A stretch of DNA of 64,000 nucleotides from Enterobacteria phage phiC600P9. Numbering within the stretch: the first letter of the stretch is position 1; every line of letters starts with the position of its first letter. The DNA lies in the sequence record MZ681930.1; one strand, given 5' to 3'. Positions 54,695 to 63,685 of the stretch are shown one piece after another. The notes under the pieces are model-generated. The model searched no databases. It was not told the origin of the DNA and was given only the letters and a program-made list of their open reading frames with translations. The position numbers and the translations under genes were made by a program.

Positions 54695-56752
54695 CTACAT
54701 TTTGAACTTTTTAGACATTCCGTTAATGTTAACCAAAGAAGCTAAGATTTGAGAAACTTCGTTTTCCTCTTCTTTTGATTCTTCTACAAGGAATTGATTA
54801 AATCCAGCCATTGGACGAACTTCACCAGTTTCCATTAAATGGTCTCCATCATATACTGATTCTTCTAATTGTTCAGAAGGAGGAACGATTGCACCTTCGA
54901 TTAGATACTTGTTATAAGCAGTTTCTTTCATAAAGTACGTACTTACTTTATTAATCTTCAGTAAAATTCCACGCGGTAGAATAACTTCAGCTTCTGATGG
55001 AAATCCTGTTAAATGACCTGGAACGATAACTTTGATTCGCTCAGCTCCTTTAATTACCATACCCACTCTAGTTTCAGCATTTTCATTAGCGTATGTAGAA
55101 TGACTACCCATATGCATCAAATCTTCTGCATCAACGGAACCTTCTCCTTCACCAGAAAATACTGCGCCGGAATCATCTAAAGCCATATAGTTTTTACCAT
55201 GCTCGCCGAAGATATTTGGTTTAAGCGATGTAGATACGAAGTTCTTGAAATAGAACATTTTGTTTTCAATGTTATGACGCAAAGTTTTAAAGGTAACTTC
55301 TTGTCCACGGTAAAGTGTAGTTCCTGGAGGAAGAACTGAACCTTTAGCAAATGCAGAATCCAACGTCTCGATGTGTTTAATAGCTCGTTCCATATATTCT
55401 TCGCGGGTAGAATCAGGTTTACCCAAAAGGAACGAGTTCATTTCAACATATGAATCTGCACAATAATCTTCAATTACATCAGATTCAGCTTGAGTTAATC
55501 CTTTTGGAGTTACTTCGGTGCTTGCGTATTCATATGCCTGGGCAGCAGATTCATTAATCAATTTATAAATGCCATTCATTACAAATTGAATAATAGCTGT
55601 CTTTTCATCTGGCGTAGCTTTAGAACCTTTAACCAAATCATTGATAATTTTCTTAATAACATCAAAGCTATTAGAAATATTAATATCAGCAAGATCGCTT
55701 AAAATTTTATCAGTTTTATAATCAAAGAATTCTTTATTCTTTAAATATTCTTGAGAACCTTGATATGTTATATCGCTCTGCAACTTGATGGATGGATCAC
55801 GTAAACGTGCATGGGCTAATGCAATATGATTTCGGAAGTTTTCTAGTTCATAATCGCTAGATTTAAAACGAGAAGCACTTCTCATACCACCGATAGCTCC
55901 TTTGCTGAAGTTTGAACCAATCTGAATAACGCCAGAGTTCATTGGTCCTTCTGCTTTATATACCGGAACTTTAGATTCAAACTCTTGATATTTCTTGGCA
56001 GCGAAGCTATCACCCTGAAGTGAAGCATCAACAGTAGAATATTGAGCTTGTGCTGCTAATCGACGACTAATTTTAGTTTTCTGAATAACAGCTTGGTCCG
56101 TGCGCTTATCATTTTCTAAAGCAATAGAAGCAGCAACAGCGACAGCTTTAGGAACAGCATTACCTGTTTTAACGTCTACATAAACATCACCAACCTTTGA
56201 TTCAACTTTTGTGAATAACTCAGTTGAAATAGGAGGTACACCTGGAATGTCTTCTAAATTGGCATTTTTACGGTAAACCATAATATATGCATACTTTTTA
56301 TCATAGTCCCAGATTTCCTTTAAAAGAACATATCGACCTGCTCCTTTAGTACGTACTAAACGGTCAGCAATAACTTGCATTTGACGAGCAGCGCCATTTG
56401 TTTTACTCTTTAGTACACGGAATAAGCACGCGTCAATTTTATACTGTTTCATTGTTTGAAGAGCAGTATCAAAAACAGCATTAATGACGCCAATTGGATT
56501 TCCACCCAAGTTTCTAAGCTTAACCAGTGATAATTTCTCATTAACACCTATCATTACGATATGCATCATTTTATCGCCCGGCTTAACGTTTTTATTCGTA
56601 TCACCGCCAGAGGTGTATGTACAAAATCTAAATCCAGGAAGCACGCTTTCTTCGCCGGCTTGAATAGCAAAAATTTGTGGTATTTTATGCTTAGGATTTA
56701 AGTTAACAACCGGCGCCGAAGCGCCGTCAAATAATTCTGTAATAAGTTCCAT
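54695..56752 (-). CDS. Alt-like ADP-ribosyltransferase paralogue, 685 aa
   Basis: Starts MELITELFD like Alt; conserved N-terminal region of about 210 aa; C-terminal R (TTLYRGQ), S-T-S (NFVSTSL) and E-x-E (SEAEVILPRG) motifs; starts 3 nt after the alt stop. Confidence 0.8.
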   Translation of the reverse strand: MELITELFDGASAPVVNLNPKHKIPQIFAIQAGEESVLPGFRFCTYTSGGDTNKNVKPGDKMMHIVMIGVNEKLSLVKLRNLGGNPIGVINAVFDTALQTMKQYKIDACLFRVLKSKTNGAARQMQVIADRLVRTKGAGRYVLLKEIWDYDKKYAYIMVYRKNANLEDIPGVPPISTELFTKVESKVGDVYVDVKTGNAVPKAVAVAASIALENDKRTDQAVIQKTKISRRLAAQAQYSTVDASLQGDSFAAKKYQEFESKVPVYKAEGPMNSGVIQIGSNFSKGAIGGMRSASRFKSSDYELENFRNHIALAHARLRDPSIKLQSDITYQGSQEYLKNKEFFDYKTDKILSDLADINISNSFDVIKKIINDLVKGSKATPDEKTAIIQFVMNGIYKLINESAAQAYEYASTEVTPKGLTQAESDVIEDYCADSYVEMNSFLLGKPDSTREEYMERAIKHIETLDSAFAKGSVLPPGTTLYRGQEVTFKTLRHNIENKMFYFKNFVSTSLKPNIFGEHGKNYMALDDSGAVFSGEGEGSVDAEDLMHMGSHSTYANENAETRVGMVIKGAERIKVIVPGHLTGFPSEAEVILPRGILLKINKVSTYFMKETAYNKYLIEGAIVPPSEQLEESVYDGDHLMETGEVRPMAGFNQFLVEESKEEENEVSQILASLVNINGMSKKFKM

Positions 56753-56755
56753 GAT

Positions 56756-58804
56756 TTATCCTTGAACGAACTTGTAAGGCATGTTTGCAATATCTATGCA
56801 AGACGCAATAATTCCAAGAGATGATTCTACTTTCTGTTTAACATTTGATGAAACAAATGATGCAAAGTCAACTCTATCTTCTATATCACCTGTCATTGTA
56901 ACCAATTCACCAGTTTCCATTAAATGGTCTCCGTCATAGATTACCGATTCGGTGAGCTCTTCCGTGGTCATAACTTCAGCTTGAATAAGCTTGTTGTTAG
57001 TTTTAACTGTTCCATCATTGTAAGATGCATCGGTTATTTTATTAACTTTGACCATTAATCCACGTGGCAAAATGACTTCCATTTCATTTGAAGGCGCTAA
57101 ACTTCCACCGGGTAAAACAACATTGACCTTATCAGCCCCAGTAATAACCCATCCAATTCCAACTAAATTATCGCTAGAATTTACTAGTCCTTCATCAGTT
57201 TTATCAATAGAAACACTTAGACGCTTTTCGTCTGGTAAAACACCTATAGATGAATCAGTCATCCAAGTACCAAAAATATTTGGATATAATGATGTTGACA
57301 CAAAGTTTCTAAAATAAAAAACTCGATTTTTTACCAATGCTTCATATATTGAAGGTAACATTCGCTGTGAACGATATAAAGTAATACCTTTTGGCAATCG
57401 ATCGCCATTTTTAAAGGCTGAATCTAAATTATCGATGGCTTGTTCTATTTCGGGTGCTGTCAAAATACTTGTACGCTCATCTGGATTATATAATCCCAAA
57501 AGAGCATTATTCATGTCTACATATCCTGAACCCACATATTCACGAATTCCGCGTTTTTGAGCCGGTGTGTATTTAGATGAATCTTTATTTTCGACTATAG
57601 AATGCAATGACCATCCAACGGTAAGAGCATATCCACGTAATTCTCTTCGAATAATCTTTGTTTTTATTGCATTCCAAGAATTTTGCACTAACTCATTTGC
57701 AGCATCTTGATTTAAATGCGAATGCTTGTTAATATTTCTTTCTAACCAAGCACTTTTATATTTTTCTAAAGTATCATCGACTATAGAAGCAATAGTTTCT
57801 AAAGTTTTTATTGAAGTAATAGATTCTTTTCGTAATCTTTCTAAAGCTTTATTTTTTATTTCTGCATTAACATCAGATTCTTTATCTTCAGGAATTATAG
57901 AAGCTTCTCTGAATGCCATCCCAGCTGTAACACTATTAAGAGCATTCTCTAGTGCAAATCCTGAAGTAGAAATTACCGTTAATTCATTAGAATCAGAAAT
58001 TAAAGGCGCGTCCGCTGGTTTATTTAATTCTGCCGCTGAAGCCTCAAATTTTTGAAACATCGGTGTTTCAAATCTAGAAGATTCCAATGACTGACTTTGT
58101 GCAATTGCTCTACGGGAAATTTTAACTTTAACGATTACAGCTTGGTCAGAACGTTTATCGTTTTCTTGCGCAATAGATGCTGCAATTGCCTCATTTTTAG
58201 TTACTTGAGCTCCAGTATCTTTATTGATATAAACATCACCGACCTTCGATTCAACTTTAGTAAAGAGCTCGGTACTAATTTCCGGAACTCCTGGAATGTC
58301 TTCTAGTGATACATTTTTGCGATGTATAAGAATATATGCATACTTTTTATCATAATCCCAGAGTTCCTTAAGAAGGACGTATCTGCCACCTGAACGACTA
58401 CGGATAAGTCTATCAGCAATAACTTGAATTTGTCGAGCTTGACCAGCGGTTTTAGACTTAAGAATACGAAGCATGCAGGCATCAATTTTATACTGGCGCA
58501 TTGTTTGCATTGCAACAGTAAAAACTGAATTGATATAATTAATTGGGCTTGGACCAAGACCTTTCAATTTAGCAATTGAACCTTTAGCAGTTAATGTAAA
58601 AGGAACAATGTGCATCATTTTATCGCCCATCTTTAAATCACGATTAGTATCACCTCCAGATGTATAGGTACATAAACGAAAGCCTGGTTGTTCAATTGCG
58701 TCATCAACATGAACTGAAAAAATTTGTGGTATTTTCTTCTTTGGATTTAAGTTTGTAATCGGAAGAGTAGTATCTTCGTCAAATAATTCTGTAATTAGTT
58801 CCAT
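56756..58804 (-). CDS. alt: Alt, head-packaged ADP-ribosyltransferase
   Basis: From the second Met, 682 aa as T4 Alt (MELITELFDEDTTLPITNL...); R (ITLYRSQ), S-T-S (NFVSTSL) and E-x-E (SNEMEVILPRG) motifs; SD GAGAGG positioned for the second ATG. Confidence 0.85.
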   Translation of the reverse strand: MELITELFDEDTTLPITNLNPKKKIPQIFSVHVDDAIEQPGFRLCTYTSGGDTNRDLKMGDKMMHIVPFTLTAKGSIAKLKGLGPSPINYINSVFTVAMQTMRQYKIDACMLRILKSKTAGQARQIQVIADRLIRSRSGGRYVLLKELWDYDKKYAYILIHRKNVSLEDIPGVPEISTELFTKVESKVGDVYINKDTGAQVTKNEAIAASIAQENDKRSDQAVIVKVKISRRAIAQSQSLESSRFETPMFQKFEASAAELNKPADAPLISDSNELTVISTSGFALENALNSVTAGMAFREASIIPEDKESDVNAEIKNKALERLRKESITSIKTLETIASIVDDTLEKYKSAWLERNINKHSHLNQDAANELVQNSWNAIKTKIIRRELRGYALTVGWSLHSIVENKDSSKYTPAQKRGIREYVGSGYVDMNNALLGLYNPDERTSILTAPEIEQAIDNLDSAFKNGDRLPKGITLYRSQRMLPSIYEALVKNRVFYFRNFVSTSLYPNIFGTWMTDSSIGVLPDEKRLSVSIDKTDEGLVNSSDNLVGIGWVITGADKVNVVLPGGSLAPSNEMEVILPRGLMVKVNKITDASYNDGTVKTNNKLIQAEVMTTEELTESVIYDGDHLMETGELVTMTGDIEDRVDFASFVSSNVKQKVESSLGIIASCIDIANMPYKFVQG

Positions 58805-58827
58805 CATATCCTCTCTAGTGTTTATTC

Positions 58828-60505: not shown

Positions 60506-60771
60506 TATTCATCCTTCAGAGTTTGGTTTACAGCTCTATTATAAATCAATTCATCATTAAGCTCAGGCAAAGACTTATGATATGTAGTTCTAACTTTATT
60601 TCCTTGCATCCAGTGCTTGACGTAAATGAAACCTTGCTCTACACATTTTTTAAAAATTCGTTCGTCTTTTTGAGCTCGGAATTCTGGATTGCATCTAAAA
60701 AATTGATTTACGTGACCGTAATCACGTGTAGTATTACCTTCATTTTCATAAATAGTGTGAACGACAAACAT
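60505..60771 (-). CDS. hypothetical protein (30.1 position)
   Basis: 88 aa ORF immediately upstream of DNA ligase. Confidence 0.5.
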   Translation of the reverse strand: MFVVHTIYENEGNTTRDYGHVNQFFRCNPEFRAQKDERIFKKCVEQGFIYVKHWMQGNKVRTTYHKSLPELNDELIYNRAVNQTLKDE

Positions 60772-61634
60772 TAGAATGCTCCTTGGAAAATATTATCACC
60801 ACTAGTAAATCTATTAAAATACCCTGCATCGCCAGGCTTGGTATAACTCCACGTATGGAATGGATTCATATGATACGGGTGTGTATAATATGGATTATAT
60901 GGATGTGTATAATATGGATTATACGGATTAAATCCAGGAGTTCTCCAGGTAGTGTTCCAACGAAAAGAATCGTTTTTAACCATCTTCTCAATTACATCTT
61001 TTATAGCTTTTTCACTATCAAAACTTTCTTTATTTTCCTTTGGTGAAAAAAGCTTATTTTCTACATCATTCCATGTATAAACTCGCTGCGCAGTTTTTGG
61101 AATATTGTCACGCTCTCCTCGAGCCATCCAATAAACCGGAACATTTAATATTTCACTCGCGTGGTCACAGTGGTGAGCGAGATCGTCAATATAACAAATT
61201 ACGTTATATTTCTCTTTTGCCTTTTTAAACAACTCTTCTTTTGAAGAATCATGGCCACACATCATTACTTCTGAGAAGGCACCAGGAAAAAGAGCATTCA
61301 AATTAAATTGACGATTCAACAGAGCGTCAATAGAATCACCCAATGCTGTAACAGCTACAAAATTATAATCTTCTTTTAATTTGTTAATTACACACAGGGC
61401 ATCTTTATACGGAGACAAGTAACGAATAAAATCTGAACGATTGTATTTTTCAATTAACTTGACGCCAAGTTCTTCATCACAATTAAAGAGTTTACCTGGA
61501 GAAATAAATTTCTCATCTTGGATCATTTTTAAAATATGTTCTAACGGAAGATTATATTTCTGAGCAAAATAAGGAAGGCCTGATTGCCAGCTTAAACATA
61601 CTCCATCAATATCAGTTAAAATAGTAGGCTTCAT
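60771..61634 (-). CDS. HAD-superfamily-like hydrolase (30.2 position) with C-terminal Pro/Tyr repeat
   Basis: 287 aa; N-terminal HAD motif I (ILTDIDGV); C-terminal tandem repeat NPYNPYYTHPY-NPYYTHPY. Confidence 0.6.
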   Translation of the reverse strand: MKPTILTDIDGVCLSWQSGLPYFAQKYNLPLEHILKMIQDEKFISPGKLFNCDEELGVKLIEKYNRSDFIRYLSPYKDALCVINKLKEDYNFVAVTALGDSIDALLNRQFNLNALFPGAFSEVMMCGHDSSKEELFKKAKEKYNVICYIDDLAHHCDHASEILNVPVYWMARGERDNIPKTAQRVYTWNDVENKLFSPKENKESFDSEKAIKDVIEKMVKNDSFRWNTTWRTPGFNPYNPYYTHPYNPYYTHPYHMNPFHTWSYTKPGDAGYFNRFTSGDNIFQGAF

Positions 61635-62089
61635 AGAGAGTCTCTTAATAGGTTTAACACATCAATAAATTCAGCTTCGGTTAGTATTGTATCATCTTTT
61701 GTTAGACCACTAGCCATGCTGTGCTTCAAAACTTTTCCTTTCGAGGCTTGTAATGCATCGCGAAAACCCTTGTTTTGGAACGCTGCTTCAAAATATGCAT
61801 TTGTGTATAATTCTTTCCACGCCGGGGAATATCTTGAAAACGGAACTCCAAGCCAGAAGAGGGTCCCACGGTCCTGAGCTCTAGCATAAGACCTTCCAGC
61901 TTGTTGAGCGGCAAGCCCAGATAACCCAAATATACGACGTTGTTGTTCAACGTTTTTCACCTTGCATCCTTGGAGGAATCCTTCAAGACCTCCAAATTGA
62001 ATACCATCCATAACGAAAGGCCATTGGGCGAAATTACTTAATGCACATGATGGCCACCTAAAATTGCTTCTAATCTCTAACTCAGACAT
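61631..62089 (-). CDS. NADAR/YbiA-like domain protein (30.3 position)
   Basis: About 152 aa from the ATG at 62087-62089 (ORF-track start is TTG); motif SNFAQWPFVMDGIQF resembles the SNFA-WP-DG signature of E. coli YbiA (NADAR). Confidence 0.55.
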   Translation of the reverse strand: MSELEIRSNFRWPSCALSNFAQWPFVMDGIQFGGLEGFLQGCKVKNVEQQRRIFGLSGLAAQQAGRSYARAQDRGTLFWLGVPFSRYSPAWKELYTNAYFEAAFQNKGFRDALQASKGKVLKHSMASGLTKDDTILTEAEFIDVLNLLRDSL

Positions 62090-62769: not shown

Positions 62770-62809
62770 AATATTTTCCTCAATAGGGGCCGAAGCCCCT
62801 CATTTTATT

Positions 62810-63657: not shown

Positions 63658-63685
63658 AAAAAAGGACTCCCGAAGGAGTCCTTAA
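63658..63685 (-). terminator. intrinsic terminator hairpin (minus strand)
   Basis: Minus-strand RNA AAGGACUCCUUCGGGAGUCCUU followed by UUUUU. Confidence 0.6.

Follow-up and report, generated by a model that had tools for sequence, protein, structure and literature searches.

The closest described relative of the gene treated here is gene 30.3 of phage T4. Johannesman et al. (Nat Commun 2025) mapped the resistance of T-even phages to the DarTG1 defense to this gene and renamed it adfN, for anti-DarT factor NADAR (PMC11825919). Deletion of adfN makes T4 sensitive to DarTG1, a phenotype that is specific to this one defense, and phage RB69 is rescued by ectopic expression of adfN; resistance during infection has been demonstrated for the alleles of T4 and T2 (PMC11825919). 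At the biochemical level, purified T4 AdfN strips ADP-ribose from DNA that had been modified by DarT1, and a bacterial two-hybrid assay detected no association between AdfN and DarT1 (PMC11825919). Removal of guanine-linked ADP-ribose (guanine-ADPr) by T4 gp30.3 in vitro has been described repeatedly (PMC11125620, PMC11825919, PMC12945103). The activity of the T4 protein depends on its setting: in E. coli without infection it fails to neutralize DarT1, and its rescue of phages T5 and Bas25 is only weak. This requirement is independent of hydroxymethylcytosine or its glucosylation, and a further protein of T-even phages has been suggested by the authors to account for it (PMC11825919).

T5-like phages and Vequintavirinae encode NADARs of their own, AdfN-Bas32 and AdfN-Bas60, which also counter DarTG1 (PMC11825919). 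They resemble T4-type AdfN in being phage-encoded orphan NADARs with specificity for guanine-ADPr, but they stem from separate acquisitions out of other NADAR branches and are active in uninfected cells and in unrelated phages; the T4-type enzyme, in contrast, depends on the context of a T-even infection.

Gene 30.3 of phiC600P9 and its T4 counterpart

We analyzed a stretch of 64,000 nucleotides of Enterobacteria phage phiC600P9 (MZ681930.1; hereafter the window), which is a Tequatrovirus (T4-like) genome segment. An earlier note, made from the DNA letters alone, had pointed to a 152-aa open reading frame in it as a NADAR/YbiA-like domain protein. This reading frame is real and lies on the minus strand, which the note had left unnamed: it runs from an ATG at 62089 down to a stop codon at 61631 (adfN, gene 30.3; 61631..62089) and encodes 152 aa of a single-domain, phage-clade NADAR ADP-ribosylglycohydrolase. 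A start at the TTG located two codons ahead of this ATG would lengthen the product to 154 aa; the T4 annotation takes the ATG. The motif that had drawn attention to the protein is present as ...LSNFAQWPFVMDGIQFGGLEGFLQGCK..., except for the trivial slip that the residues quoted as FQG actually read GFLQG.

In a Pfam scan, the product matches PF08010 (Phage_30_3) over its full length (E=8.6e-70; 233.4 bits compared to a gathering cut-off of 36; profile positions 1-138 of 138), and around 650 T4-like records match the 30.3 region. Alignment with T4 gp30.3 is gapless, with 150 of 152 residues identical (99%) and both proteins equal in length. The only substitutions, I104F and I125M, are conservative and fall on variable columns of our alignment A1, which comprises 71 full-length 30.3 homologs and is the basis of the invariance counts and the family profile used below: column 104 is a gap in 41 of the 71 sequences, and column 125 is M in 34 and I in 30 of them. 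The two genes differ at 12 of 459 nucleotides, again without gaps, and purifying selection appears to act on the 30.3 frame because 9 of these differences are synonymous.

T4 has an annotated internal out-of-frame ORF named gene 30.3′, which corresponds to 61726..61953 (minus strand) in the window. Its ATG start is ACG here, a change that is synonymous in the 30.3 frame, and across this segment the 30.3′ frame departs from T4 at 7 of 74 residues, compared to one change in the 30.3 frame. It is therefore 30.3 rather than 30.3′ that is under selection, which speaks against 30.3′ as a conserved protein-coding gene.

The observation itself is thereby confirmed as real and far beyond chance, and both the identity and the biology of the product of 61631..62089 are already known: it is a T4-type AdfN, a protein that was described between 2023 and 2025 in literature on its 99% identical counterpart. 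The phiC600P9 gene shares with T4 adfN its place between 30.2 and 30.4, the same overlaps with these neighbors, the residues E36, K43, and H123, and an intact C-terminal helix. Its assignment as NADAR/YbiA-like is supported because T4 gp30.3 is AdfN and because remote homology and fold agree with it. The further proposal of the earlier note, that the protein counters host defense by removing ADP-ribose from guanine in DNA, finds its support in the experiments on the T4 protein (PMC11825919, PMC11125620, PMC12945103).

We are therefore highly confident that 61631..62089 is adfN and encodes a minimal NADAR orphan antitoxin that erases the guanine-ADP-ribose made by DarT1 from phage DNA. For the phiC600P9 protein itself, our analysis establishes orthology, fold, catalytic residues, and the intact C-terminal helix, while enzymatic activity and DarTG1 resistance of this allele would be expected from its 99% identity to T4 AdfN. 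The adfN product would be made early in infection as a minimal single-domain ADP-ribosylglycohydrolase of the NADAR fold. Upon infection of a host with DarTG1, the DarT1 toxin would be released and would ADP-ribosylate guanines of the phage DNA at N2, a modification that would block replication. As an "orphan antitoxin", AdfN would use E36, K43, and H123 to hydrolyze the bond between guanine and ADP-ribose and leave the toxin itself unbound, which would restore the DNA to its unmodified state and allow replication.

The targets of the enzyme may be broader than the product of DarT1 and comprise guanine-ADPr on phage RNA or nucleotides or the lesions of other guanine-specific toxins (ScARP/pierisin-like or YarT-like). 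We consider this possible, if rather doubtful, and it would extend rather than exclude the anti-DarT1 explanation by making DarTG1 one of several threats. Removal of ScARP-made guanine-ADPr from both DNA and RNA is common to all NADAR families, the T4 enzyme among them, and the roughly 1,500 phage records with a homolog span many host genera and exceed the known range of any single DarT1 tested; however, DarTG1 is the sole defense that has been demonstrated to be countered in vivo.

The 30.x cluster and the neighboring Alt transferases

The genes around phiC600P9 adfN match the order of T4 one-for-one (alt.-3, alt, alt.1, the ligase gene 30, and 30.1-30.8), and this synteny bears out the placement in the 30.x early operon that had been proposed from the sequence alone. 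The stop of 30.4 and the start of 30.3 overlap by 8 nt (ATGTCTGA; 62082..62089, minus strand), and the stop of 30.3 and the start of 30.2 overlap in an ATGA (61631..61634, minus strand), with the same arrangement annotated in T4 at both junctions. Overlaps of starts and stops are characteristic of T4 early gene clusters with translational coupling, and those seen here indicate a probable coupling of 30.4, 30.3, and 30.2 within a polycistronic unit. From the same overlapping codons and from what is known of T4, we infer early polycistronic expression of 30.3.

A promoter scan gave 22 hits compared to 19.0±4.5 in shuffled sequence and a terminator scan gave 5 compared to 3.0±1.8; neither represents an excess, and we claim no specific promoter. 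Two strong GC-rich hairpins with a T-run are found at 62785..62800 (plus strand), between 30.7 and 30.6, and at 63662..63683 (minus strand), just past a 30.9-like ORF. These hairpins may serve in termination or RNA processing within the 30.x cluster.

Two Alt-type transferases had been noticed within a few kb of adfN, and both are genuine, with PF03496 matches at 56756..58807 and 54695..56752. The former is the ortholog of T4 Alt (98% identical; minus strand), and the latter is a full-length paralog of 685 aa that is 41% identical to T4 Alt (minus strand). Both lie 2.8-7 kb away on the strand of 30.3, the nearer one at a distance of about 2.8 kb. Alt is a packaged protein-arginine ADP-ribosyltransferase and is annotated as such in T4. 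The paralog lies where T4 retains alt.-1 and alt.-2, decayed remnants of a duplication; phiC600P9 thus keeps an intact, diverged second Alt that possibly has a different target.

Given this neighborhood, AdfN might be seen as an "eraser" that reverses on-target or off-target modifications made by the phage's own ADP-ribosyltransferases, that is, the two Alt paralogs or ModA/ModB. The proximity of two PF03496 genes on the same strand would fit such a role, and so would the persistence of the alt-ligase-30.x arrangement in the distant Straboviridae KARL-1 and phiAS5. We nevertheless regard it as very unlikely: Alt targets protein arginine, while the T4 NADAR acts specifically on guanine-ADPr and leaves thymidine-ADPr and cytidine-ADPr untouched, and the phenotype of the adfN deletion is specific to DarTG1. 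Furthermore, no ADP-ribosyltransferase gene was found within 4-6 kb of the 30.3 homolog in Vibrio phage PG216, where the homolog lies between gp55 and gp47, in Ralstonia phage RSP15 (Ackermannviridae), where it lies inside a tRNA cluster, or in two sets of large metagenomic phage contigs. The adjacency of Alt and 30.3 in Straboviridae is explained by synteny of the whole region, and since homologs outside these syntenic genomes have no ADP-ribosyltransferase nearby, the proximity is coincidental. Of the earlier suggestion about the Alt genes, a functional link is therefore left unsupported by the enzymes' specificities and by these other contexts, while the caution that their location might be coincidental was well placed.

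NUDIX hydrolase genes are found a few kb from the 30.3 homolog on a 308-kb metagenomic phage contig (L003:9115-9879) and in Acinetobacter phage KARL-1 (L009:2902-3426). A NUDIX ADP-ribose pyrophosphatase could serve to dispose of the ADP-ribose released by a NADAR.

Remote homology to NADAR domains and the active site

The relationship of the 30.3 product to NADAR domains is not evident from routine annotation. PF08010 was the sole match in a plain Pfam scan, without any match to PF08719 (NADAR); scans against NCBIfam and PADLOC returned no match, and the PHROGs entry for the family lists its function as unknown. Since the earlier note had named the lack of a NADAR hit in a profile search as grounds to abandon the assignment, and the plain scan literally gave this outcome, remote homology was tested further. 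A database search retrieved 104 homologs of the 30.3 product that all match PF08010; one additionally matches PF08719, and JGI gives several of them the name "YbiA (DUF1768 family)". When the members of A1 were scanned singly, 9 of 71 matched PF08719 (E<=0.01; best E=1.5e-7). The sole meaningful PDB sequence for the A1 profile was E. coli YbiA (2b3w; E=0.007), with an alignment that spans the SNFA...DG...E-x6-K segment, and hhalign of A1 against YbiA of E. coli K-12 gave a probability of 94.2% (E=1.2e-7 over 90 columns). Two NADARs of known crystal structure, 8bau and 8bat, lay beyond the A1-profile search of the PDB even at E<=10 and were reached from the 30.3 product by fold comparison alone, in agreement with the model of this protein, which has the alpha-helical core with small beta-sheets at its flanks that characterizes the NADAR fold. 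Taken together, the singly scanned members and the hhalign result suggest that PF08010 behaves as a diverged NADAR branch outside the reach of the PF08719 model. The NADAR profile thus failed in the plain scan, and the kinship was recovered by profile-versus-sequence comparison, by the 9 of 71 homologs, and by fold.

A match of the 30.3 product to 3rjz in a single-sequence phmmer search of the PDB (E=0.82) was rejected as a chance match. The distant homolog P0081 shows a weak match to the PADLOC candidate model PDC-M42C.

Following the SNF...DG motif, the 30.3 product carries the Glu/Lys pair in E-x6-K spacing. E36 (codon GAA, 61982..61984, minus strand) and K43 (codon AAG, 61961..61963, minus strand) align with E48 and K55 of YbiA both in the A1 profile match to 2b3w and in hhalign, so that the catalytic residues whose absence would have spoken against the NADAR reading are both in place. 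Their equivalents in the NADAR of E. coli C7 DarG1, E88 and K95, are essential there (PMC11543638), and T4 AdfN is impaired by E36A, by K43A, and by C-terminal truncation (PMC11825919). The residues invariant in all 71 homologs include P13, A16-F20 (ALSNF), E36, G37, F38, Q40, and H123, and the position of K43 is K in 69 of 71.

A third active-site position defines the NADAR subfamily, with Glu in the YbiA type, Asp in the DarG1 type, and His in the phage type, and the His is regarded as the hallmark of phage NADARs (PMC11543638, PMC11125620). In phiC600P9 AdfN, this phage-clade residue is H123 (codon CAC, 61721..61723, minus strand; invariant in 71/71), which closes the last beta-strand directly after the modeled strand residues 120-122. 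The hhalign match stops at K122 opposite V124 of YbiA, where the next residue is E125, and the pairing of H123 with E125 rests on a one-residue extension past this match (YbiA reads ...AKLVEHT..., the 30.3 product ...KVLKHS...).

This position bears on the view of the protein as a YbiA-type housekeeping N-glycosidase that acts on riboflavin-biosynthesis intermediates, which would make 30.3 an auxiliary metabolic gene. YbiA of E. coli, annotated "N-glycosidase YbiA", is indeed the closest solved relative by sequence, and the JGI labels point the same way, but an invariant His stands in for the Glu by which the YbiA subfamily is recognized, a published phylogeny sets phage NADARs nearest to DarG1-type NADARs, and experiments in the literature have demonstrated both the removal of ADP-ribose from DNA and the anti-DarTG1 phenotype. 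We judge a metabolic function extremely unlikely. YbiA (2b3w; NADAR/DUF1768, PF08719) has Glu125 compared to His123 in the phage protein, the two share an identity of only around 20%, and YbiA has a chromosomal dinG/ybiB context under LexA control and a proposed N-glycosidase role on riboflavin intermediates. The 30.3 product is no member of the YbiA subfamily because the Glu is missing.

Neither is it a member of a DarTG1 system. DarG1 (the NADARs of Geobacter lovleyi, PDB 8bat, and of E. coli C7) catalyzes the same reaction and likewise does not bind the toxin, but the phage protein is an orphan: no DarT gene was found among the ORFs flanking 30.3 (the HAD-like 30.2 and 30.4), and the Alt genes belong to PF03496 and not to the DarT family. 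It carries His123 where DarG1 has Asp at the third active-site position and is a core-only protein of 152 aa that lacks the N-terminal extension, compared to 219 aa in 8bat. It is the missing DarT neighbor, the His in place of Asp, and the core-only architecture that set it apart from DarTG1; in addition, T4 AdfN is no substitute for DarG1 in uninfected cells. The 30.3 product thus belongs to the phage NADAR clade (PF08010).

The C-terminal alpha-helix (residues 138-151; 61637..61678, minus strand) is intact in phiC600P9 and modeled at high confidence. This helix is needed for full activity of AdfN and is lost in the frameshifted allele of RB69 (PMC11825919), which explains the sensitivity of RB69 to DarTG1. 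While the RB69 product is 15 residues short, the phiC600P9 gene has no RB69-type insertion, as the alignment with T4 is gapless in both DNA and protein. Stoichiometric binding of DarT1 with an incidental NADAR fold, the way in which the phage anti-DarT factors AdfA and AdfB act, has virtually no chance of being correct and has effectively been refuted by published data already, given the negative two-hybrid assay, the loss of function in E36A and K43A, the clearance of DNA ADP-ribosylation by purified AdfN without any toxin, and the invariance of catalytic residues across the family.

gp30.2 as a candidate partner and the annotation of the family

For AdfN as an enzyme that erases guanine-ADP-ribose, the simple view of a free enzyme that cleans DNA is incomplete because the T4 protein fails in uninfected cells and is weak for T5 and Bas25, and a T-even-specific factor or context is needed. 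The gene downstream, 30.2 (60771..61634, minus strand), encodes a protein of 287 aa with intact motifs of the HAD superfamily and a resemblance, although only a weak one, to 5'(3')-deoxyribonucleotidases. In the proteins of both the window and T4, these are D8-x-D10-G-V (DIDGV, residues 8-12), T96, K132, and D150-D151. T96, K132, and D150-D151 are invariant in an alignment of six gp30.2 homologs (A3), and motif I is seen in every homolog whose N-terminus is covered, with the annotated start at locus L015 leaving it out. gp30.2 is hypothetical in the T4 annotation and has no Pfam match; its KARL-1 ortholog shows a weak match to PF00702, and gp30.2 itself weakly matches a polynucleotide-kinase PHROG. 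The best hit of a PDB search, the 5'(3')-deoxyribonucleotidase 2jao (E=0.14), is not significant.

As a protein that is translationally coupled to AdfN, gp30.2 is a candidate for its T-even cofactor, albeit an unlikely one. The published failures of AdfN-T4 in uninfected E. coli, T5, and Bas25 fit this idea; to our knowledge, none of the three carries 30.2. RB69, where AdfN-T4 works, presumably carries a 30.2 of its own as a T-even phage. In PG216 (OR538032.1; L010:6007-6961), the relocated 30.3 homolog overlaps a downstream NT5C gene, which encodes a HAD-type 5'(3')-deoxyribonucleotidase (PF06941, E=5e-11), and thus forms a NADAR-HAD pair at a non-syntenic location. Comparison of the gp30.2 family with this NT5C by hhalign recovered motif I only (82% over 23 columns). 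Among all ORFs of 13 loci, phmmer found gp30.2 homologs at four Straboviridae loci only, all with ligase synteny, and none near the 30.3 homologs of RSP15, a Desulfovibrio phage, and jumbo-like contigs. With gp30.2 as the BLASTP query, the neighbors of the homologs on two metagenomic phage contigs gave no match, and those neighbors are without Pfam matches. The pairing of 30.3 with 30.2 could be plain Straboviridae synteny plus one coincidence.

gp30.2 ends in a tail of about 90 aa that is rich in Pro, Tyr, and Asn (…NPYNPYYTHPYNPYYTHPYHMNPF…; ~60780..61050, minus strand) and that is found in the Tequatrovirus proteins only among the six aligned homologs. The tail contains an extra 10-residue repeat unit compared to T4 (287 vs 278 aa), diverges far more than the HAD domain, and has the look of a low-complexity region that grew by repeat expansion.

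Using tblastn, we found 30.3 homologs in 1,510 phage records, of which 1,503 cover at least 80% of the protein, and nearly all of them are labeled "hypothetical protein". The homolog of Klebsiella phage phi1_146015 (PP889466.1, L015:4007-4447) is misannotated as "virion RNA polymerase". Among T4-like database entries, many (P0007, P0013-P0018, P0056, and P0096) carry gp30.3 either as a truncated fragment of 83-126 aa or fused to another 30.x family (PF11097, PF06919 (gp30.7), or PF06019 (gp30.8)). Such entries suggest frequent frameshifts or deletions in the 30.x cluster, by which AdfN would be lost naturally, as happened in RB69.

Since the function has been published for T4 itself and the phiC600P9 allele is near-identical, the finding brings nothing new in terms of biology. 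Its practical value lies in annotation, since the label of a NADAR with anti-defense function is missed by Pfam, NCBIfam, and PADLOC and would apply to more than 1,500 phage records. gp30.2 offers a cheap candidate for what T4-type AdfN requires from a T-even infection, and the gene as such is a clean example of a phage "orphan antitoxin", an enzyme that undoes the DNA modification of a host toxin.
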